DNA from: a virus | Virus record (IMG/VR): IMGVR_UViG_3300042553_000685 | Length of the DNA stretch: 64,000 bases | Strand: one strand, 5' to 3' | Shown: positions 18,501 through 28,542 of the stretch, one piece after another | How the letters are laid out: every line of letters begins with the position of its first letter | Numbering within the stretch: the first letter of the stretch is position 1 | Notes under the pieces: generated by a model | What the model saw: only the letters and a program-made list of their open reading frames with translations | The model's database searches: none | Told to the model about the DNA's origin: nothing | Program-made: the position numbers and the translations under genes

Positions 18501-19513
18501 TATCTCACTATGGCGTCTTCTATTATGGCATTGACTATCTCGCGACTGGTTATACCAGCACTAATCAATGAGTTCTGACGAGGCCCGTCGTATGCTGTAG
18601 CCCCTATTCCGGTTATATATACATTCTTTATTAGACGAAAGCCGGGCTTAACTAGTGGAAATCTAACTAATATTGGATCAGCAGGATAATTCATTGGCCA
18701 CGATGGGTAGAAGCCAGTCGCTAATACAATAGAATCCACACCTGGTATCTCTCTACTATTAGTTATGCGGGGCATCTCCTTGTAATTATACTGGGCTAGC
18801 TCATTGGCTATATAGGGTGTGATGCTGGGCCCCCACCTCTTAACACGAGATAGGTACTCAGCACGCTTATTTAATGGGAGGGTCCTATAGTATCCGCCCA
18901 GCGCTGTCTTATTATACCAGTGCGTGTAGGATGGAGCAGGATAATTATCTATACGGTACCCCCCGTGACTCCAGGTAACTTCATTGTTCTGCGCTAGGTA
19001 CGCTACTGCCTCTGCCGCGCCCTGACCGCTACCTAGTACTAGAAGGCGTTTATTACGTGCCGGGTGCTTCAAGTAGTGACTGAGCGTATGAGTATCGTAA
19101 CCCACTGTCCAATCAGGCACGCGCTGCTCTCGTTGTCCTGTAGCTATAACCAGGGGGCCCTCCTCCAGGGGGCCTATCTCTAGACCCATGCTCAGTGCTC
19201 GTTGTAAGGCCCACTGTAAGTAGTCCTCGAATACATCCCTGTTGCATCGTTCCTGCACTGCCTCTATCTCACGCTGGCCTCCCAGTATACGCTCTCGTTG
19301 TAGGTAGTGACAGAGGCTGTAATCAGCGCCCTCTATATTAGTACATAGGTCGAAGGAGATAGGGCTCCTCATCTGTAGATTGGGTACTACTTCATCTTTA
19401 CTCCAGCTGCTCAGGGGCCTCGGGTCCCATGCGCGTGCAGTTAGACCTCGACTGAGTGCTTCTAACGCTACTGATAGGCCGCGCGGGCCTAGTCCCATTA
19501 TATTTACAATCAC
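18500..19513 (-). CDS. FAD/NAD(P)-binding oxidoreductase, class-B flavoprotein monooxygenase-like
   Basis: 337 aa with a GTG start. N-terminal dinucleotide-binding GLGPRG (about nt 19478-19498). ATG motif LVIATGQ. Second Rossmann motif LLVLGSGQGAAEAVAYL. Distal IVLATGF motif. This order is typical of N-hydroxylating/FMO-type flavoenzymes. Confidence 0.65.
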   Translation of the reverse strand: MIVNIMGLGPRGLSVALEALSRGLTARAWDPRPLSSWSKDEVVPNLQMRSPISFDLCTNIEGADYSLCHYLQRERILGGQREIEAVQERCNRDVFEDYLQWALQRALSMGLEIGPLEEGPLVIATGQREQRVPDWTVGYDTHTLSHYLKHPARNKRLLVLGSGQGAAEAVAYLAQNNEVTWSHGGYRIDNYPAPSYTHWYNKTALGGYYRTLPLNKRAEYLSRVKRWGPSITPYIANELAQYNYKEMPRITNSREIPGVDSIVLATGFYPSWPMNYPADPILVRFPLVKPGFRLIKNVYITGIGATAYDGPRQNSLISAGITSREIVNAIIEDAIVR

Positions 19514-19637
19514 GAATTATAGTCTCCGTTATATACCGTACGCCGGCGCTTAACCATACCGTCTGATCTATTGTACCTAGTGACAGTGCAGTATCGCTAG
19601 TCTCTACTATACGCTGCGCCTGCCATTAACCTGAATG

Positions 19638-21374
19638 CTAGACAGGTTCCCAGGAGTACCAATCTACGCCATCCCATGTGAACTCTGCCTGTATACTCGT
19701 GCTGCTATTACCCAGCGTCAGTACGGTAACGGTAGTATTGGGATTCTTAACTAGAATATTAAACGCGGGCGCCAGATTCAGTATACGGAAGCGCGTACCC
19801 ACCGTAGGATTAAGCGGTAATAATACATCTCTGTTCGCACCATCAGGGTCTAGGTGTTGTGTACCGGCGCTAGATAATGTGAGAGTCAGCGCACCAGTGA
19901 GAGTCTGCCTATTCAGTGATACCTGATTACTGAGGTTAGCTGCGTTCCATCTACTGGTAGAGGCATTCCACGTCAACACCTGACCCTGTGCAGGGCTAGT
20001 GATAGCTACATCAGATAGGCCTGCCAGAGTGCCGCCTCCACTATTAACTGCACCCCAGCGTAAACCAGTAGCTGTAGTGCTATCGGCTAGTAGTACCTGG
20101 TCGTTGCTGCCTACAGGGAGCCGACTTAGTACTGTGGCGCCCTGTACCAATATATCCCCCTTAGCTACTGCGGGGATTAGAGTATTGAATCTAGTAGTTA
20201 CACGCGCATCAGTGTAGTAGAGATTAGTTGTACCCTCAGCTATATCATCAGTATCAGCGGGGGCCTGCCACCGTAGCCCCGTCGTCGTTGTAGAGTCAGC
20301 TACTAAGAAGGTGCCATTAGCCCCTATGGGCAGACGAGCATCAGTGGTACTATATGTATGTAGATCACCCTTAGTAGTAAGAGGGCTAGTGAAAGTAGAA
20401 CCGGTAGGTGTGGTAGGGACCCAGTTACTAGTTGTGCTATTCCACGCTAGGTATTGCCCATTAGTAGCTACTGTATTGCTGACATCCAGTAGATCAGATA
20501 ATTCCGCCAGCTCGATACGCGCATCTACTCGAGCGCTTGTATGATAGAGGTTAGCGCCCTCAGGTAGATTAGTAGTAGTGGCTGGACCCGCCGCCAGAGT
20601 AGTAGGTATCCAGTTACCACTCTGATATGCTAGAACCTGACCATTAGTTACGCCTGCAGTATTAACATCATTGAGGTCATTGAGCAGGGCTCTATCTAGC
20701 CGTAGCCACTCAGTACCATTAGAATAATAAGCACCCCCCGCGCCATTGACTGCAGCAAACATACCTCGGTAGGTATTAGCTGGCGGTAGACCACCTATAT
20801 TAGCTATATTGGTGCTCCACCTAATAGTGCCTGTAGTGTGGATATTATTATCACCATCTATTAGATTATTGAGCGCAGTCTGTGTGTTATTTACATCATT
20901 TAAATTATTGAGCGCTAGTAAATCCCCTCCACCAGATGCTGTAGCATTAACCCAGTTAGTACCATTCCATGTCAGGCTCTGCCCTATAACAGGGGTAGTT
21001 ATAGTCACATCACTCAGCGCATTAATACCAGTGCTGTTTATACGCGTGCGTACCCAGGCAGTAGTGGCTAACCGCGTGTTATTGTCGTTACTAGGAGGTG
21101 TGGGAGCAGTAGGGGCCCCGGTTAGTGCTGCGTTATTGATAGGGGCCCGTGTTGTCAGGCCGGGTACGGTAGGCGCTGTTGCTGTACCACCTAAGTCGCC
21201 GGTTAGCCTGATAGTACCTAGTACGCTGGCTGTAGCGGGCCCAGGTAATAGGGTACTCAGATTAATACGGTATGGTGTTACTGTTCCATTACGAATTAGT
21301 ACTATTACCATTGAGTCTCCAGTTATTATGCTAGGGAGTAGTGGTAATGCTAGTGCAGTATCTTGAATAGTCAT
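19638..21374 (-). CDS. tail fibre protein with internal sequence repeats
   Basis: 578 aa. Repeated L(S/N)D(V/L)xxxxxxxGQxLxWNxxxxxW(V/I)P units (ALSDVTITTPVIGQSLTWNGTNWVNA; LNDVNTAGVTNGQVLAYQSGNWIPT; LLDVSNTVATNGQYLAWNSTTSNWVPT; LSDVAITSPAQGQVLTWNASTSRWNA). Also two KGD(L/I)...RLP(I/V)G.N...L(V/L)ADSTT.TGLRW units. Both motif types are common in phage fibres. Confidence 0.7.
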   Translation of the reverse strand: MTIQDTALALPLLPSIITGDSMVIVLIRNGTVTPYRINLSTLLPGPATASVLGTIRLTGDLGGTATAPTVPGLTTRAPINNAALTGAPTAPTPPSNDNNTRLATTAWVRTRINSTGINALSDVTITTPVIGQSLTWNGTNWVNATASGGGDLLALNNLNDVNNTQTALNNLIDGDNNIHTTGTIRWSTNIANIGGLPPANTYRGMFAAVNGAGGAYYSNGTEWLRLDRALLNDLNDVNTAGVTNGQVLAYQSGNWIPTTLAAGPATTTNLPEGANLYHTSARVDARIELAELSDLLDVSNTVATNGQYLAWNSTTSNWVPTTPTGSTFTSPLTTKGDLHTYSTTDARLPIGANGTFLVADSTTTTGLRWQAPADTDDIAEGTTNLYYTDARVTTRFNTLIPAVAKGDILVQGATVLSRLPVGSNDQVLLADSTTATGLRWGAVNSGGGTLAGLSDVAITSPAQGQVLTWNASTSRWNAANLSNQVSLNRQTLTGALTLTLSSAGTQHLDPDGANRDVLLPLNPTVGTRFRILNLAPAFNILVKNPNTTVTVLTLGNSSTSIQAEFTWDGVDWYSWEPV

Positions 21375-21473
21375 ATAATTTGCGTTGTAGTGTGATGGTT
21401 AAATGTTGAGAGTCATATTAGATGCCTCTGGACTCTAACTTGTGGGATGACTTTCTTCTCCTACACTATATAT

Positions 21474-21479
21474 TATAAT
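21474..21479 (+). promoter_or_regulatory. candidate -10 box (TATAAT) for the plus-strand island
   Basis: TATAAT lies in the 147-nt divergent gap between the tail-fibre start (21374) and the first island gene (21522). No good -35 box. Confidence 0.25.
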
Positions 21480-21521
21480 ATTAGGGTAGTCCATATTTAA
21501 CCATAACCCTGGGAGCATAGA

Positions 21522-22337
21522 ATGACAACGATGCTTAGAAGAGTACAACGACTTTTAGACTCTGGCGATAGTGATAACGCTAGAGAAGAAATTGATAGAG
21601 CTTTCGGCAATCTGAGAAGGGTGGATAGTCATGTTAGAGAGTTTTCAGATCTGTTGGCACTGGGATCGATCAAAGCTTCAGAAATCGGCTTAGGGGTATT
21701 GGGACGTAAGCTTCTACAGAATGACAGCGAGATTAACAATGAGGTTGTTTGGTTATTTATTGCGTCAATTTTATCTCGCAATAGTATTCCCCCTGATAGT
21801 CCATCTAGAATCAGCCTACTTGTTCTTACCGCTTCTGTCAATAGTTGGGAATTACCAATTTTTGCGCTTCTTGCCCCTGCCCTCGACGCTTTTTTTAAAG
21901 TTAGTCTTGCGGACGGAACCCCTTTAATTGCCGAACAAACTTTTGATTTTTTGGCCACTTGGGGAAGAATTTATGCGAAAGCACCTCATGTCAAAACGCA
22001 GCTTCAAGAACTTCAATCTCTTAGTAATAATCTATTAGAGCAAGTAGATGACTCAGAGTTAAAAGCTGAATGGTCAGAGGGAATTAATATATTTTTTGAA
22101 GAAGCCAGTACAACCAAATATTCAGATAGTAATGTTTTTTCTGCTGGTGAAGAATTAATTAAAAAAATTTATAATACTCAAAGTTTACAGCGCAATACAG
22201 AAGATAAGAATTTGGCAGAGACAAAAGACAAGTTACTCCGATTAGTCACTTCGTCTCTTGCTACTATTGGAACAGTTCTTGGTAGTGATGGAGTCATACT
22301 AAATACGGTTCTTGATAATTCTAGTAAAATAATGTAA
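21522..22337 (+). CDS. hypothetical protein (271 aa), first gene of the low-GC island
   Basis: ATG preceded by GGGAG at a 7-nt spacing. Looks helical. No motif recognised. Confidence 0.6.
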   Translation: MTTMLRRVQRLLDSGDSDNAREEIDRAFGNLRRVDSHVREFSDLLALGSIKASEIGLGVLGRKLLQNDSEINNEVVWLFIASILSRNSIPPDSPSRISLLVLTASVNSWELPIFALLAPALDAFFKVSLADGTPLIAEQTFDFLATWGRIYAKAPHVKTQLQELQSLSNNLLEQVDDSELKAEWSEGINIFFEEASTTKYSDSNVFSAGEELIKKIYNTQSLQRNTEDKNLAETKDKLLRLVTSSLATIGTVLGSDGVILNTVLDNSSKIM

Positions 22338-22366
22338 GATTTAAGTAATGAATCAAGGAGGAAATC

Positions 22367-22621
22367 ATGAGTCAATTGCAAGACAGTGTTAACGAATTAG
22401 TTAAGTACATTCTTGAGTATGAAACTGATTATTGGAGTAAGTCAGATGTTCAATTAAGCAAAGAGGAAGCTGAAAACATGGCTGCTATTTTGATTGGCAA
22501 TTTAATTGATGACATTGAGGATGCTGACATTGAGGATGCTTATAATGAAATGTATGAACCACCAGATAATCCTGACCCACTTTATATGTATGACGTTCAG
22601 ACAAGGTGGACAATTTATTGA
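22367..22621 (+). CDS. small highly acidic protein (84 aa)
   Basis: Preceded by AATCAAGGAGGAAATC-ATG. Has D/E-rich runs (NLIDDIEDADIEDAYNEMYEPPDNPD). Confidence 0.6.
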   Translation: MSQLQDSVNELVKYILEYETDYWSKSDVQLSKEEAENMAAILIGNLIDDIEDADIEDAYNEMYEPPDNPDPLYMYDVQTRWTIY

Positions 22622-22672
22622 ATTTAGTTATCAGTTATCAGTTAAAAACAACAATAAATCAAGGAGAAAATT

Positions 22673-22864
22673 ATGAAGCTTGTTGCAGTAAATATGGACA
22701 CTACTACAATTAGTTATTACGCTAATTTTTACGCAGAACAATATCAAGATGCTAAACAAGAATTTGGGGAAAAGGCATGGAAAAAACGTGACGTTTTATA
22801 CTCGAAAATCAGAGAGTATAATAAAATTCTAGAACAACGTGGACTTGAAAAAGTAGAGGTGTAG
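22673..22864 (+). CDS. hypothetical protein (63 aa)
   Basis: Preceded by AATCAAGGAGAAAATT-ATG, the same leader motif as the previous gene. Confidence 0.5.
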   Translation: MKLVAVNMDTTTISYYANFYAEQYQDAKQEFGEKAWKKRDVLYSKIREYNKILEQRGLEKVEV

Positions 22865-22871
22865 GGACAAA

Positions 22872-22958
22872 ATGATGACAAATTCAGAAAAGCGACTATG
22901 GGGTATAATCTTTCGGATAACTATTCTGGTTTATATAGTAGTTTCAACGGCTTTATAG
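22872..22958 (+). CDS. candidate 28-aa hydrophobic mini-protein (not in the ORF track)
   Basis: Hand translation gives MMTNSEKRLWGIIFRITILVYIVVSTAL-stop. It starts 8 nt after the stop of the previous gene. Contains one TM-like segment. Confidence 0.3.
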   Translation: MMTNSEKRLWGIIFRITILVYIVVSTAL

Positions 22959-23203
22959 CTAGAATTTATAGATTCTCATAAAGACTATAAGGCTAATTTA
23001 AGGTCTACCATACGGTACTGTTTAGACAACAAATGAAAGTGTAATCATGGAAAAAGAAACTAAAAAGTGTGGAAAAACTTATCAATGTCATACTGATTTG
23101 ATAAGAACAAAGGACTTGTCAAAGGAACGGAAGAACAAGAGTCTGCTAATAGACTCAAAGCATATTTAGATTATTGCAAAAAACACCTAAAGGATTGGAA
23201 ACA

Positions 23204-23356
23204 ATGAGGTACAGAATCAGGACAATAGATAAAAAAAATAAGCCTTGCAGAATTAGAACATCTATGCACGAAAGCCGACTAATGGCTTACTTAGAAGCTC
23301 TAAGTCGCAGCGGGCACCATAGCATCGTAGTAAAGGAAACAGTAGGTATTTCCTAA
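23204..23356 (+). CDS. small basic protein (50 aa from the ATG; the track ORF starts at TTG 23174)
   Basis: MRYRIRTIDKKNKPCRIRT... An AAGGA lies about 9 nt upstream of ATG 23204. Confidence 0.35.
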   Translation: MRYRIRTIDKKNKPCRIRTSMHESRLMAYLEALSRSGHHSIVVKETVGIS

Positions 23357-23381
23357 TAATTTCACCCAACAGGAGTAACAA

Positions 23382-23744
23382 ATGGACATAAAACAAATAA
23401 CAGAGAAAATATTGGAATTCTGTCACAGAAGTTATCCAAATTTAAAATGGAATCTTGACTCTGAAAATAATATAATTCAGTGTCCACTTTTTCCTGATGA
23501 ATTAATAATAGAGGTTTTTCTGGATGGACTGCTTAAGCGTGTTTCATGCGAAGCGTATTATGTAGGCACGTTTGGATTATGGATAAACCCTGACGATAAA
23601 GACAATAACTATCCTTATGAGAATCAAATAGCATTTGATTATATTAGAAAGTCAAAATCTGATTATTTCGATAACAAATACAGAGAAACTCGAAAAGTAA
23701 TGCTGGACATTTTCACTTTCATTCTTGATGAGATTCAAGAGTAA
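23382..23744 (+). CDS. island paralogue family, member 1 (120 aa, divergent)
   Basis: SD CAGGAG upstream. The N-terminus ITEKILEFCHRSYPNLKWNL resembles ALKQIEVFCKETFKQPKNWSL of member 3. The C-terminal helix VMLDIFTFILDEI resembles KIMETILNFIK. Confidence 0.6.
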   Translation: MDIKQITEKILEFCHRSYPNLKWNLDSENNIIQCPLFPDELIIEVFLDGLLKRVSCEAYYVGTFGLWINPDDKDNNYPYENQIAFDYIRKSKSDYFDNKYRETRKVMLDIFTFILDEIQE

Positions 23745-23757
23745 ATAGTAGCAACAG

Positions 23758-24168
23758 ATGGGCACATGGGAAATGGATGTTTATGAAAAGATAGAGGTGT
23801 TAAAACAAATCGGGGTTTTTTGTGATAATGCCTATAAAATGGTTGATTACTCAAAATGGACTCTTAAACTAAGGCAAATAGATGTTTTCACCGACTTAGT
23901 ATTAGAAGGCTCTATCAATATTCTCTATCCAAACAAGCTAAAAGGAAGATACGATGTTTGGGTTGAGTATCGTTCTAAGTCATCTAAATCTTTAGTAGTT
24001 AGGGTAGAGGGGACAGCCACTGGGCATGATTGGGTTAAGATAGATTCGATTAAAAAAGAACCAAAAAGTGAAGGAGACAACAAAACCTTAAATATCTTGA
24101 TTCCAGAAACGACAAAAATAATGGAGACTATTTTAAGTTTCACCGAAACAATTAAATCTGAGGGTTAA
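23758..24168 (+). CDS. island paralogue family, member 2 (136 aa)
   Basis: Shares EVLKQIGVFC, ILYPNKLKGRYDVWVEY, VRVEG, WVKIDS and GDNKTLNILIPETTKIMETILSF with member 3. Confidence 0.65.
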   Translation: MGTWEMDVYEKIEVLKQIGVFCDNAYKMVDYSKWTLKLRQIDVFTDLVLEGSINILYPNKLKGRYDVWVEYRSKSSKSLVVRVEGTATGHDWVKIDSIKKEPKSEGDNKTLNILIPETTKIMETILSFTETIKSEG

Positions 24169-24173
24169 CGCTA

Positions 24174-24680
24174 ATGAACAAAACAGAAGCATTAAAACAA
24201 ATTGAGGTTTTCTGTAAAGAAACTTTTAAGCAGCCTAAAAATTGGAGTCTTGAAGCGCAGAAGCTTGGCGCAAGTTCCTACGACAAGGACACCAATACTT
24301 TCGAGCATTTATTAGATAGAGATGGGGAGATTGTCTTAAAAGGCGTGATTTTTGTTATTTATCCTAGCGAATTACTACAAGGAGTTTTTCCTCCTGACAT
24401 ATTAGTAGGAAGATATTATATTTCAATTAAATATATTTCCAATCTGTCCAACATTTTAGAGGCTAAAGTAGAAGGTTATTTAACACAAACTCAGAAGACT
24501 ATGTTGCTAATAGGAGATTATCGCCGAGAAAATAAAAGCTGGGTTCAGCTTACTTCAACTAAAGAAGAATCAGATGTTGCGGGAGATAACGAAGGTTTAA
24601 ATATCTTGATTCCAGAAGCGACAAAGATAATGGAGACTATTTTAAACTTTATTAAAACAACCGAGGTTACAGACACTTAA
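24174..24680 (+). CDS. island paralogue family, member 3 (168 aa)
   Basis: Shares EALKQIEVFC, VIYPSEL..VGRYYISIKY, AKVEG, WVQLTS and GDNEGLNILIPEATKIMETILNF with member 2. Starts 5 nt after the stop of member 2. Confidence 0.65.
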   Translation: MNKTEALKQIEVFCKETFKQPKNWSLEAQKLGASSYDKDTNTFEHLLDRDGEIVLKGVIFVIYPSELLQGVFPPDILVGRYYISIKYISNLSNILEAKVEGYLTQTQKTMLLIGDYRRENKSWVQLTSTKEESDVAGDNEGLNILIPEATKIMETILNFIKTTEVTDT

Positions 24681-24907
24681 AACAATGGCAACAAATGAAG
24701 AACTTAGAATAGACAATAAGTAGTTAAATATGTGTAATTAATTATCTCTAGCTACTTACATCTAATAGAGTATCGCCGGGATAACTCGTTGTATCCTGTA
24801 TGCCCGGTGTTATTTGTTCAGTTGCTAGTCTGAGTGATATCACAGGAGACCTGAGTTTGGCATTTGTACAGCCTTAATAGATACAGCGTCAGAACTATAC
24901 GCAGGTG

Positions 24908-25723
24908 CTAGCAATATACTAGATTCTGCCCTATTACTCTCATCAGTATACTGCCGGAGCCTAGACGACCACAACTTATATATAACCCATGTGAATTACC
25001 TACTATGCTCACTACGCCTCCAATTTCCAGCGGCCTATCTAACCATACTAGAAATGGCTGCGCCTTAATAAATTCATCGAGGACTACATCACTAGCTGGC
25101 TTTGGTCGATTCTCCCTACAACTTACATTAGGCCTGGGGGTTATAGTGCGGGCTACAGTACTGGTATTATTAGTTATACCAAATACACCATTGTCAGTAG
25201 AGTCCCCTATTTTATACGACACTATACAGTGCAGATCCAGTGGGTAGTTAACATTGTATGCCTCAGTCGAATAACCTATATAATTAAACACATAGCCGTT
25301 CTGGTCTGGTACACCTGAGTTCAGACGTATCTGTAGTATACCTAGACCCGCATTAGAGGCACACATATATACAACTCGCTCACCTGTTAGGTTAGGTATG
25401 ACATATGGGTTCTGCACAGGAACAAATGGGCCCGGCGTAGTTTCATTGTGAGGATATACCCCTACTATGCGTAAATTGTTGTCAAATAGCACACGAGTCT
25501 TACCATCACTAGCAGTAGTTGTAACGGCTCCAGTTATAAGCTCTCGGGAAGGTATACGTGCGTGGAACCCCATAACATTAGGTAATACTTCATTATTAGC
25601 AGCACCTAGCGCTGTGTCTAGAAACTCTACTAACTGAGAACGCGTGATATCTATACCAGGACTGGGGCCTGATTTATAACCAAAGTACGTAATGCCGTTT
25701 ATTGTGTTTATTGGAGTAATCAT
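24908..25723 (-). CDS. hypothetical distal tail protein (271 aa)
   Basis: Last gene of the baseplate/fibre operon, 8 nt downstream of the 936-aa gene. Uses the core phage codon style. Confidence 0.6.
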   Translation of the reverse strand: MITPINTINGITYFGYKSGPSPGIDITRSQLVEFLDTALGAANNEVLPNVMGFHARIPSRELITGAVTTTASDGKTRVLFDNNLRIVGVYPHNETTPGPFVPVQNPYVIPNLTGERVVYMCASNAGLGILQIRLNSGVPDQNGYVFNYIGYSTEAYNVNYPLDLHCIVSYKIGDSTDNGVFGITNNTSTVARTITPRPNVSCRENRPKPASDVVLDEFIKAQPFLVWLDRPLEIGGVVSIVGNSHGLYISCGRLGSGSILMRVIGQNLVYC

Positions 25724-25731
25724 CGAATTTG

Positions 25732-28542
25732 TTACAGGGGAGCTATTCCTCGGACTACCACTACTTCGGGGCAGTCATCGTTGGTAATTGATAAAATTGC
25801 GTTATTGATACCATCGAAAACGGTAAATTGACATCTATATTTAAGTGGATCGTCTGGGCGAGCTATATCAGTAAACTTAAATTTTTTAATTTCTCTGCTA
25901 AGTACCTTGGAACTAATATCGAATGCAAAAGGAGGAGGGGGACTGAGAAGCTCATCAAATGTAAAAGGCCCATATGTTTTAATTTCATTGTTGGCATTTT
26001 TATAAATTATATTTATCTCCCACGGGAATTGAGGTATTGGATTGTATCTTCGGGTATTTCCGCATGAAGTATCAAGAGGTTGCGACCATTCTACCGCAAG
26101 AATAATGCAAGGCTCAGGAATCTCCGTAGTAATAGAACTTCCATAAGAGAAAATTCTTGGAGTTGGCACACCGGTGCAATCAAAGCCAGGGAAAAGAGAT
26201 AATTCAAAATCTACAATTACATCGCTGGCTTTAAGTATCCAATTAGCGAGATAACCCCCTCCTGAAATAGGAAGAAGGTTGGTCGAATAAGATTCTCCCG
26301 CAATTTCTTGCCAATTTTCATTGGGGTATCTGTATCTAATCTTTTTCGGTTCTTGACCAGGGCAATATACAGCAGATTGGTTGACTTCAATGATTTTTGC
26401 TGGCCTATTGGGTAAAACCCCAGGGCAATATATCCCAGATTGGTTGACTTCAATGATTTTTGCTGGCCTATTGGGTAAAACCCCAGGGCAATATATAAAC
26501 AAGAGTTCAAATGGACAGAAGTCAAATTGACCTGCGAGACAGCCATATGGCTCTGGTGCCTCACAAATACCAAACCAGTAACAGATATTACACTCCTCGT
26601 CATCTGGGACTAGCGCGCCTGCTGCTGGTATATCATCTATAGTGCCAGTCCCCAGTATATTACCCTCTCGTATAACCAGCACGCCGCCAGGAGCAGGATT
26701 AATTCTCTCTTCCCATCGTCCTAGTACTCCTACGCGCGCTGATGGGCGTGGCATACCTAGTATTCCTGTGCCTAGGGTGGTGTTACCGTAAGTAGGTAGA
26801 TTACCAACTACGTGCAGTGCCTCTCTCCACGCCTCTGTAACATATACTTCTTGATACCCTAATCCTGTTAACCAGTTGAGAATACCCGATATAGTCACAG
26901 GGACCTTAGTTGGGGCCGGAGGTACTACTAGTGGTTTATTATACGCCGCACTAATTGAGGGTACTAGGGCCTCTAGTATGCGGCCTAGATTACCCGATCT
27001 AATGGCTGTTTTACTGAATAGGCCGAAGTCTGTAGGTAGAGCCCCTCTTACGCGCGACATTGTCTTATCTATACGATAGAGATAGTTCCTATATAGAGGG
27101 CCCAGTTCATCTAGTACTCCTAGGAATGAGGTGCTGGATAGCTCTCTAGCTAGTGATAATCCACACTCTAGTGTAGGGTCATTATCTAATATAGCGCGGT
27201 ATGTAGTATTTAAATTAACATCTCCTACTAACTCTAGTTGGAGTGCTAGGAATGTAGGACTCACTGCCTGTCCTATTACATTACTGAGGCTCGCCCGCGC
27301 CTGGCTAGGTGTATCAGCGTAGTCAACTAGCACGCGGCTTATAAGAGCCCCTAGTGTTATATTTATAGCATCAGTGCCCCAGGAAGATGTGTAATAGTAG
27401 AGGCGCGCGCTCTCTATTAATCTATGAGCATGGGGTAGGTATGATCTATCTACACGACTATAGGCCAGTATAGCTAGGGCCGCTGTTATCGTACCACTAG
27501 CTGTAGGACTATCTAGGCTAAGTGACGTGCTTAGAGGGCGGGCATCTGTCCAACCAGTAATCATTCTACCGCGGCTATCTATACGACTCACTAGATACTC
27601 TGCTAGTGGAGTGACCTTATCTCCGTAGCCCGCGATGCAGAGCGCTAGCAATACAGCAGCGCATGATCTATCCCGTACCTCTCGAGATACGCGTTTATTA
27701 TTGGGGCCCACCTCTATACAGTCGCTGCAGTTCTCTACTACGCGTATCTCAGTTAATGCCTGTAGTTTCTCTGCCTCGGGGCCGTATATATCGGCCTCAG
27801 AGCTCAGGCTATACACAAAGCGAGGGATACTCCCTCGTCTGCCCGGTAGACTGCCGGGATCCATTAGTTCTAGTAGGCCTGTGCATGCCCGTCTAATGTA
27901 TTCACTGACTGTCGCGTCTATTTCAGAACTGCGGTATATTACATTAGCGTCTGGCCGTATAGATGCCCCTACCATACCTATGATAGCCCACGCTAACTCC
28001 TCAGTATCTACCGTCTGATTCGCTAGAGAGCGCGCTATACCTAGCTGCGCGTGAGGAAGACCTTGTGTCTTGTAGTAGCGTAATAGGAACTCTCCTGCCG
28101 TTGGGCTAACGCGCACTACCTCAGCGTACGGCAGGCCTGGTATGAGAGGTGTAGTTAGCTCAAGGGTACCTTGCTTCTGTGGATATAGGGCGTAATTGGA
28201 GCGCCCCGGTGTGCCAGTGAGGGGGCACACTACACCCACGTTGATTACAGTAGCTCTATTCTCATCATCAACTTTACCCGCTATGAAGAAAGGTTTACCT
28301 GCTGGGAAGAAACCTTCTGTACCCAGCGGGCCTAGCGCCTGATTGCTCCATATACCTATTCGCTCTACGCATTGCGTAGGGGTACAGTTGATCTCCAGGC
28401 AATTGGGATCCGGTGGTAGGTCTATATTATTAGCATAGCCCTGTTTATCACTAGCCAGGAATAGCTCTACCTCTCCTATCTCAGGATCAGGTATGCCCCC
28501 CGGGATTAGTAGTCGTGATAATCTATAACGATAATTAACCAA
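25732..28542 (-). CDS. large baseplate-distal/receptor-binding-like protein (936 aa) with a compositionally foreign Cys-rich C-terminal domain
   Basis: Immediately follows the J-like gene and overlaps it by 8 nt. The 3' ~880 nt (25732 to about 26610) switch to low GC and encode a Cys-rich domain with a 21-aa tandem duplication. Confidence 0.65.
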   Translation of the reverse strand: MVNYRYRLSRLLIPGGIPDPEIGEVELFLASDKQGYANNIDLPPDPNCLEINCTPTQCVERIGIWSNQALGPLGTEGFFPAGKPFFIAGKVDDENRATVINVGVVCPLTGTPGRSNYALYPQKQGTLELTTPLIPGLPYAEVVRVSPTAGEFLLRYYKTQGLPHAQLGIARSLANQTVDTEELAWAIIGMVGASIRPDANVIYRSSEIDATVSEYIRRACTGLLELMDPGSLPGRRGSIPRFVYSLSSEADIYGPEAEKLQALTEIRVVENCSDCIEVGPNNKRVSREVRDRSCAAVLLALCIAGYGDKVTPLAEYLVSRIDSRGRMITGWTDARPLSTSLSLDSPTASGTITAALAILAYSRVDRSYLPHAHRLIESARLYYYTSSWGTDAINITLGALISRVLVDYADTPSQARASLSNVIGQAVSPTFLALQLELVGDVNLNTTYRAILDNDPTLECGLSLARELSSTSFLGVLDELGPLYRNYLYRIDKTMSRVRGALPTDFGLFSKTAIRSGNLGRILEALVPSISAAYNKPLVVPPAPTKVPVTISGILNWLTGLGYQEVYVTEAWREALHVVGNLPTYGNTTLGTGILGMPRPSARVGVLGRWEERINPAPGGVLVIREGNILGTGTIDDIPAAGALVPDDEECNICYWFGICEAPEPYGCLAGQFDFCPFELLFIYCPGVLPNRPAKIIEVNQSGIYCPGVLPNRPAKIIEVNQSAVYCPGQEPKKIRYRYPNENWQEIAGESYSTNLLPISGGGYLANWILKASDVIVDFELSLFPGFDCTGVPTPRIFSYGSSITTEIPEPCIILAVEWSQPLDTSCGNTRRYNPIPQFPWEINIIYKNANNEIKTYGPFTFDELLSPPPPFAFDISSKVLSREIKKFKFTDIARPDDPLKYRCQFTVFDGINNAILSITNDDCPEVVVVRGIAPL
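26357..26500. repeat. 63-bp tandem repeat, 2 full copies plus a partial third, in frame (IYCPGVLPNRPAKIIEVNQS x2)
   Basis: agggcaatata recurs at 26359, 26422 and 26485 (period 63). The copies are nearly identical. Confidence 0.9.

Follow-up and report, generated by a model that had tools for sequence, protein, structure and literature searches.

A Plus-strand Block within the Minus-strand Tail Module

We analyzed a 64,000-nucleotide stretch of virus DNA (IMG/VR record IMGVR_UViG_3300042553_000685; hereafter the window) around a block of small genes that is read on the strand opposite to its structural neighbors and that probably consists of two separately exchanged modules, a homologue of gene gp104 of the phage Ma-LMM01 and, downstream of it, an inserted cassette that ends in a tandem array of paralogs. 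The window genome is a Fukuivirus, ∼96% identical to Ma-LMM01 and in the reverse-complement orientation of the cultured records, and the cultured phages matched by the region 19100–27000 in blastn are Ma-LMM01 and the MaMV phages (95–96% identity at a query coverage of 51–55%). The plus-strand genes span 21522–24680 within the tail module, which belongs to a minus-strand run of ∼1.5–50.5 kb. With a greedy call of open reading frames (ORFs), every ORF of at least 60 amino acids in 1497–50463 lies on the minus strand except for this block and one ORF of 62 amino acids. An earlier interpretation made from the nucleotide letters alone (the sequence-only reading) had described just such an opposite-strand block in a minus-strand structural array, located between a 578-residue fiber gene and baseplate genes, and both descriptions are borne out. 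The flanking genes are orthologues of Ma-LMM01 gp108–gp101, and the placement is correct because the gp105 homologue on the left (19638–21374, minus strand; 578 amino acids, tail-fiber-like, 96% nucleotide identity to Ma-LMM01, phrog_32934) matches tail-fiber PHROGs including phrog_9729 (E 1e-24), and that of gp101 encodes a protein of the baseplate wedge (phrog_6, E 2e-24). On the right, the gp103 homologue (24908–25723, minus strand; phrog_35606, E 2e-180) is convergent with the block and is followed by those of gp102 and gp101.

The composition of the block is also unlike that of its surroundings, with a G+C content of 32–36% in 1-kb windows against 42–52% elsewhere. The 2549-bp insert delimited below has 33.7% G+C, compared with a mean of 47.3% (standard deviation 1.8, minimum 41.9) for other windows of equal size, a sliding-window result that confirms the low G+C claimed from the letters. 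Relative to a reference of 36 core genes, the preference among synonymous codons is shifted for four amino acids, Lys, Glu, Leu, and Ile (chi-square p 1e-8 to 1e-10), with island and core fractions of 0.69 and 0.29 for AAA, 0.62 and 0.27 for GAA, 0.44 and 0.20 for TTA, 0.29 and 0.59 for ATA, and 0.13 and 0.38 for CTA. The codons of Ser do not differ between island and core (p 0.37), and the codon style ascribed to the block is therefore right for the rise of AAA, GAA, and TTA and the fall of ATA and CTA but not for serine. Shine-Dalgarno (SD) motifs of the GGAG/GAGG type precede 5 of 7 island genes as against 12 of 42 others (Fisher p 0.04); they do mark the island, as had been proposed, but as an enrichment and not as an all-or-none difference. 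The nine products of the block had been described as lacking recognizable motifs, and indeed Pfam, NCBIfam, and PADLOC (the latter with eight products at E ≤ 1) match none of them, although only seven remain credible once two doubtful ORFs of 28 and 40 residues are set aside. The sole match of any island product in PHROGs is that of the gp104 homologue to phrog_38246, PDB sequence searches gave no match, and scanning the region revealed neither an Rfam family (E ≤ 1) nor a tRNA.

Limits of the Insertion

Homology to Ma-LMM01 covers 19001–22313 and restarts at 24863, with 60 unrelated bases between these points in Ma-LMM01. The actual presence/absence insertion is 22314–24862, 2549 bp in place of 60 bp, and because the homology reaches 22313 the gp104 homologue is part of the conserved Fukuivirus map. 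This gene, a quarter of the span of the block, is present and syntenic in all nine Fukuivirus records (seven distinct genomes), whereas the insertion is absent from all seven distinct cultured isolate genomes. An empty site in close relatives, the mark of a moron or accessory island, is found for 22314–24862 and not for gp104, and the view of the block as one island has to be abandoned.

The insertion occupies the gap in which gp104 and gp103 converge with their 3′ ends, and the ∼20 IMG/VR Fukuivirus contigs that span this slot all carry the cassette. Comparison of the relatives recovers the variable slot that the sequence-only reading had postulated. Beside the 60 bp of Ma-LMM01, the gap holds a transposase in MaMV-DH01 (L002:6390–7376; L numbers denote the loci compared), and in MaMV isolates CH01, CH02, DL01, and DL02 it has suffered a deletion that fuses or truncates gp104 (L003:6047 in MaMV-CH01). 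The gap is a general hotspot for insertions and deletions.

The left recombination junction lies at 22309–22313, where homology to a siphophage-like lineage described below starts (22309) and that to Ma-LMM01 stops (22313); microhomology at this junction amounts to only 2 bp. The insertion rewrote the last ∼9 codons of gp104, and the −10 box of the cassette promoter overlaps the new gp104 stop. On the right side the siphophage homology ends at 24704, and the final 158 bp of the insert (24705–24862) are non-coding and common only to the island-bearing Fukuivirus contigs. This end contains a candidate terminator (24768–24822, plus strand), a G+C-rich hairpin followed by a U-rich run that emerges from the fold of 24681–24870 (z −2.7) and was missed by a consensus terminator scan. 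A repeat search around 22314–24862 found no terminal repeats; with no transposase or integrase ORF either, a reading of the insert as a mobile element was rejected.

Distribution and Predicted Fold of the gp104 Homologue

The first module is the gp104 homologue itself (21522–22337, plus strand; 271 amino acids, phrog_38246 with E 9e-174), which has a G+C content of 0.38 (0.27 at third codon positions) and island-like codon use despite its fixation in Fukuivirus. Copies that are 90–98% identical occur in ∼28 loci of the siphophage-like lineage, always by the genes for an Rcc01698-like host-specificity protein and NlpC/P60. Microcystis genomes also carry copies, at 89–96% identity, and the 90% clusters have members annotated in Microcystis genomes, among which are contigs of 5.45 and 5.67 Mb (WP_233271255.1 and WP_242030041.1). 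More distant relatives, ∼50% identical and 404–416 amino acids long, are found in the Nostocales Dolichospermum, Aphanizomenon, and Cronbergia, and longer homologues carry added DUF7226 or HEAT repeats; a literature search on DUF7226 found nothing, and tblastn of gp104 against plasmids gave no match. In our reading gp104 originated in cyanobacteria and circulates among the host and both phage lineages, and it ties both lineages to Microcystis.

Two further observations concern gp104 in the siphophage-like lineage. The 753-residue Rcc01698-like gene is found in two positions relative to gp104, upstream and co-directional or downstream and read from the other strand (L075–L082 versus L084–L091 and L099), so that the host-range locus of these phages appears to have two arrangements or an invertible segment. 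One member (IMGVR_UViG_3300042486_001390) has two gp104-like genes, at L098:4004–5671 (555 amino acids, fused to DUF7226) and at L074:73–804 (244 amino acids), and the 555-residue fusion resembles Microcystis proteins of 557 residues.

The AlphaFold2 model of gp104 is all-α, with a predicted local distance difference test score (pLDDT) of 86.5 and a predicted template modeling score (pTM) of 0.86. Foldseek matched it to designed ARM proteins with a probability of up to 1.0 but E values of 0.02–0.1, and in VIA it matched HEAT/ARM proteins with Z 8–10 over ∼185 residues. The protein has no Pfam HEAT/ARM signature, HEAT matches being confined to the extra C-terminal part of one homologue (P0198); likewise, when PADLOC was run on the long homologues, only the C-terminal HEAT-repeat extension of P0198 matched HEAT models. 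It is possible that gp104 is a truncated decoy of a host protein. Neither its spread to the host and the siphophages nor its ARM/HEAT-like fold was found in the annotations and literature consulted.

Candidate Promoter and Leader Genes of the Cassette

The sequence-only reading had placed the island's own promoter at a TATAAT at position 21474. That hexamer exists (21474–21479), within the divergent gp105/gp104 intergenic region (21375–21521) in which there are weak σ70-like matches, and the AT-rich stretch 21464–21480 around it gives, when read on the other strand, the −10 string that Morimoto et al. 2018 assigned to gp105 (PMC5780444, Table S3). One palindrome-like element at 21464–21480 may thus serve both divergent genes. 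The cassette, however, has a promoter-like element of its own, TTGATA-17-TAAGAT at 22312–22340 (plus strand), which was identified by a promoter scan and by its conservation: the −35 box is TTGACA in most relatives and TTGATA in the window, and TTGAYA-17-TAAGAT is kept at the head of the module at 40 sites across loci of both phage lineages. Two copies of a 24-nucleotide leader repeat with an SD site follow on the plus strand, one before o84 (22347–22370) and one before o63 (22653–22676), which form a direct repeat (D4, 88%) and account for the leader that the sequence-only reading saw shared by two genes.

The first leader gene, o84 (22367–22621, plus strand), encodes an acidic protein of 84 amino acids (pI 4.05) whose homologues are confined to the Fukuivirus and siphophage-lineage phage groups. 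The second, o63 (22673–22864, plus strand; 63 amino acids), heads the array in most of the loci extending that far, at 58–100% identity, with a ratio of nonsynonymous to synonymous substitution rates (dN/dS) of 0.49 (n = 2). Directly before the paralogs lies o60s (23204–23356, plus strand), encoding a basic protein of 50 amino acids (pI 10.6). The ORF here is 60 amino acids long, but a start at 23204 is more likely because the 50-residue form is intact in 25 of 26 homologous stretches; its dN/dS of 0.18 (n = 29) points to purifying selection. Between o63 and o60s are the two doubtful ORFs, which are probably not genes. The hydrophobic 28-residue ORF (22872–22958, plus strand) is intact in none of 10 stretches and has no third-position bias, and the idea that it encodes a small membrane toxin was dropped as the ORF is not conserved, whereas the 40-residue ORF (23047–23169) is full-length and ungapped in only 1 of 43 homologous stretches. 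A tblastn search of cultured phages with o84, o63, and the third paralog found nothing.

A Tandem Array of Orphan Paralogs

Three paralogs on the plus strand complete the cassette. Paralog 1 (23382–23744; 120 amino acids, A-type), assigned by the family hidden Markov model (HMM), is 87.5% identical to MaMV-DH01 gp159 and 95% identical to its counterpart in a siphophage-lineage locus (L015). Paralog 2 (23758–24168; 136 amino acids, B-type) is 34% identical to paralog 3 (24174–24680; 168 amino acids, B-type), with which it has a 121-nucleotide 3′ repeat in common. The dN/dS values of paralogs 1 and 2 (0.32 and 0.31) show these genes to be maintained.

Matches to paralog 3 and o84 in IMG/VR delimited 64 loci, in which a census with an iterated HMM counted 331 ORFs, with 2–11 tandem copies per locus that are always co-oriented and a roughly constant order of subtypes; the ORFs are intact across the ∼330 copies. 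Both ends of the proteins are conserved, as an N-terminal helix (KI..FC...YP.L.W) and a C-terminal helix (KIM..IFNFI..EIQ), and the middle is hypervariable. In a set of 5.8 billion proteins the family accounts for only 182 clusters at 90% identity, and a set of 1.84 billion contains 29 representatives; all sources are metagenomes, "uncultured phage," MaMV phages, or Microcystis bins. Chromosomal copies were not found among 185,579 bacterial species genomes. The only three matches, which led us to drop the idea of bacterial chromosomal copies, are phage-like contigs in metagenome-assembled genomes (MAGs) that are not cyanobacterial; these are near-complete siphophage-lineage contigs in Crocinitomicaceae/Acidimicrobium MAGs (L069, JBIPMW010000308.1, 86.5 kb; L070; and L071), probably through mis-binning. 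Pfam matched none of 62 family members, the ESM Atlas gave no usable match for paralog 3 or gp104, and the family is an orphan confined to phages.

The AlphaFold2 model of paralog 2 (pLDDT 85, pTM 0.80) consists of a helix, a six-stranded antiparallel sheet, and a long helix, and it predicts that the two conserved terminal helices pack on the variable sheet. Foldseek found nothing significant for this model in the PDB, and a search of BFVD returned family members only. An exhaustive structure aligner placed the TULIP-type protein OrfX3 first (Z 8.9, root mean square deviation 3.8 over 130 residues), followed by TBP-like (7.4), DUF4468 (7.1), and KA1 and START (∼6–7) folds, with many matches at 6–7. 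By eye, no signal peptide or transmembrane segment is evident in the paralog translations.

Turnover of the Arrays

Two deletion events can be reconstructed from the repeats. In loci L005 and L015 o84 is missing precisely between the 24-nucleotide leader repeats that flank it in the window. In arrays of the L008 type, a repeat of ∼100 bp, made up of the codons for the C-terminal helix, the stop, and the start of the next gene, recurs downstream by a truncated copy. When aligned with L008 and L064, paralog 3 of the window tracks the full gene up to this repeat and then the flank of the truncated copy, and because it switches flank at the repeat the window has lost a 110-residue gene and one paralog by repeat recombination, which also gave paralog 3 its present 3′ end. 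A 12-codon remnant of the start of that 110-residue gene (of the type at L026:5280–5612) is discernible by alignment at 24685–24723 (plus strand), the stretch in which the siphophage homology ends (24704). With this gene and a paralog deleted between repeats, the three-gene array of the window is a minimal deletion derivative. The 110-residue gene itself (L026:5280–5612; also at L008:2978, L013:4773, L061:7672, and L064:2004) lies inside arrays on both phage backbones, stands outside the paralog family, and has no Pfam or PHROG match.

A further trio of family members is found in the MaMV phages immediately before the DNA primase gene (gp157–gp159 in DH01), a second and independent landing site.

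A Siphophage-like Lineage with the Same Cassette

The second backbone that bears the cassette belongs to an uncultured siphophage-like lineage of ∼88 kb (contigs of 82–91 kb), whose nearest cultured relative, Cylindrospermopsis phage Cr-LKS4, has just 30% identity in the helicase. In this lineage the cassette is co-oriented with the replication module, with a DUF3987 primase-like gene on one side and an SF2 helicase on the other, and the genes that come after are a DUF2793 fiber, DUF2460 proteins, and a phiJL001-type baseplate hub. The two backbones are unrelated, yet the window cassette has 84–95% DNA identity to the siphophage loci (L005 and L015, for example). The alternative that these loci represent the MaMV primase region was rejected since no MaMV early-region protein matches them.

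A separate trace of contact between the lineages is seen in gp102. The last 330 residues of gp102 in the window vary, at 60–94% identity, among the contigs that span the slot. In L009:5486–6400, L013:7144–8100, and L063, between gp103 and gp102, the C-terminal region of gp102 is 42% identical to a 306-residue siphophage protein (L026:9210–10130). That protein follows the DUF2793 fiber, and the gp102 C terminus of the window lacks the matching piece. These data suggest that the Fukuivirus and siphophage lineages exchange receptor-binding domains. Within gp102 of the window (26357–26496) there are also tandem repeats of ∼63 bp, the copy number of which appears from offset blastn matches to depend on the phage.

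Origin and Possible Function of the Island

Together these data support the accessory, compositionally foreign, and horizontally exchanged nature that the sequence-only reading gave the block. We regard it as probable that the block is an accessory island put together from two modules, each with its own history of exchange, and that its cassette serves as a host-interaction or counter-defense repertoire of likely siphophage derivation. Module 1, the gp104 gene, would circulate among chromosomes of Microcystis, Fukuivirus myophages, and the siphophage-like lineage with an identity of ∼90% or higher, adjoining tail or host-specificity genes in both phage types. Module 2 (22314–24862) would have entered the gp104/gp103 gap by illegitimate recombination, with its junction directly upstream of the −35 box, and would share a recent ancestor with the cassette of the siphophage lineage. 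It would bring with it a near-consensus σ70 promoter of the host type, small leader genes, and the tandem orphan array, which would gain, lose, and fuse members through recombination at the conserved ends of its genes. Host RNA polymerase would transcribe the cassette early or in mid-infection, and the paralogs would form a repertoire of cytoplasmic binders directed at host targets that vary, which most probably belong to the defenses of Microcystis.

The proposal of such a repertoire draws on the putative host-type promoter, on the dispensability of the cassette (viable isolates without it exist), on a scaffold with a variable face, and on the change in copy number, as well as on its placement in a replication module in two of three contexts and its trade between unrelated phages of the same host. 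For the function of the cassette, counter-defense is our best guess, and one that we would put a little short of even, because the host is rich in defense: M. aeruginosa has unusually abundant defense genes (PMC5780444). A more ambitious formulation, doubtful as a whole, is that the array constitutes a new family of counter-defense or host-takeover binders, each presenting a variable β-sheet face to one polymorphic component of Microcystis defense, reshuffled at the conserved gene ends and traded as a promoter-bearing unit between unrelated phages, with gp104 as a captured and truncated ARM-like decoy from the host.

Several points weigh against the reading of the block as a composite host-interaction island. 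No similarity to a known anti-defense or defense protein was found for the island products by Pfam, NCBIfam, PDB sequence, or fold matches. The fold matches of the paralogs are those of a generic helix-on-sheet arrangement, and the resemblance of the gp104 model to an ARM/HEAT-like α-solenoid is at the generic fold level only. In Ma-LMM01, gp104 is weakly expressed and not early: it falls in expression subclass B3 rather than in early class B1, and its log2 values of fragments per kilobase per million reads are 3.6, 3.8, 6.5, and 7.3 at 0, 1, 3, and 6 h, when its neighbors reach ∼9–10 at 6 h (PMC5780444, Table S3). The dN/dS of o84 is ∼1 on five pairs, the apparent prevalence of the cassette in the siphophage lineage is biased by the route by which loci were found, and the direction of transfer is not proven, given a left junction that is symmetrical.

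That symmetry leaves room for a history in which the cassette was ancestral in Fukuivirus and lost from the cultured (Asian) isolates; the recipient would then be a third phage or the siphophage lineage. In keeping with such a history, the cassette is present in each of the metagenomic Fukuivirus contigs spanning the slot, and the MaMV phages hold a related trio elsewhere in the genome. We nevertheless consider it unlikely, and the siphophage lineage the more likely donor, because of G+C, array richness, and gene context. The G+C content of the cassette (31–35%) is nearer to that of the siphophage backbone (∼36–43%) than to that of the Fukuivirus core (47%), and the arrays of the siphophages are the richer ones, reaching 11 copies and covering every clade of the family. 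In addition, the siphophage cassette is co-oriented within a replication module, whereas the Fukuivirus copy lies on the opposite strand at a convergent gene end and rewrites the C terminus of gp104, and the 60 bp of Ma-LMM01 contain no footprint of a cassette end.

The targets of the array need not be those of the host. The two lineages evidently co-infect and recombine, and against rival phages that vary a repertoire of variable binders would be just as apt, so that the array could serve in competition between phages, by superinfection exclusion or by interfering with other Microcystis phages in the same cell. Most known exclusion genes, however, are associated with the membrane or with injection, and among the island products no membrane proteins or PADLOC matches were found; moreover, both lineages carry the same family, often in near-identical copies, which makes this use of the array distinctly unlikely. 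It is more unlikely still that the block supplies accessory functions to the tail fibers, for example chaperones, adaptors, or decoration proteins linked with the recognition of the host. Such a role would fit the proximity of gp104 to fiber or host-specificity genes in both lineages and that of the Fukuivirus slot to the variable gp102 C terminus, but the array has its own predicted σ70-type promoter on the opposite strand, in both the siphophage lineage and the MaMV phages it resides among replication genes, it is missing from viable isolates whose fiber genes are the same, and in Ma-LMM01 gp104 falls short of its neighbors in expression. Finally, that the cassette is functionless DNA hitch-hiking in a recombination-permissive gap, for which the o84 dN/dS of ∼1, the two non-conserved small ORFs, and the shrunken state of the window array might speak, is scarcely credible with o60s, o120, and o136 under purifying selection (dN/dS 0.18–0.32), the promoter and SD conserved in 40 sites, and ORFs intact in ∼330 copies.

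Microcystis blooms are shaped by phages, and the Microcystis defense arsenal is among the largest known. As a putative host-interaction island, the locus is a concrete candidate for how Microcystis phages cope with host defense; it also records recent exchange between a myophage and a siphophage-like lineage on one host, and the content of its arrays is a possible marker for phage-host arms races in bloom metagenomes. What the window adds is the insertion in the fiber slot with its exact promoter junction, the split into two modules, the distribution and predicted fold of gp104, and the two reconstructed deletions.

Comparison with Known Systems

The closest comparison for module 1 is gp104 of Ma-LMM01 (YP_851118.1, phrog_38246), an orthologue with 94% identity in the same position and on the same strand; it differs from the window copy, in which the last codons are replaced by cassette sequence. 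For the array, it is the trio gp157–gp159 of MaMV-DH01 (with equivalents in CH01/02 and DL01/02), which is likewise made up of three tandem genes of the same family. That trio, however, lies ∼39 kb away, by the primase gene and not in the fiber slot, is composed of other member types, and has no o84, o63, or o60s leader genes at recognizable identity.

Hypervariable regions of cyanomyophages have reportedly been discussed in published work. The moron or hyperplastic-region islands of T4-type and cyanobacterial myophages have in common with this locus atypical composition, presence/absence polymorphism, and host-recognition genes as neighbors, as well as a promoter of their own, which in this locus is a putative one. 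The present island differs in comprising two modules, one of them common to an unrelated siphophage-like lineage, and in carrying tandem paralogs in place of single morons. Tandem paralogs of fast turnover with conserved ends and variable cores also make up the internal-protein loci of T4-type phages, the multigene families of African swine fever virus, and the "accordions" of poxviruses, all of which are presumed to act on host factors and none of which has sequence or fold kinship with the paralog family. The internal proteins of T4-type phages differ further in their cleaved targeting peptide, whereas the N-terminal helix of the paralogs is modeled as integral to the fold, and the paralogs are not known to be associated with virions. 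The polyimmunity loci of bacterial polymorphic-toxin systems (SUKH/Imm arrays) are similar as tandem sets of small diversified binders, each presumed to neutralize a different partner. Pfam finds no Imm or SUKH match among the 62 members of the present family, however, and the arrays described here are borne by phages and have no toxin genes nearby.

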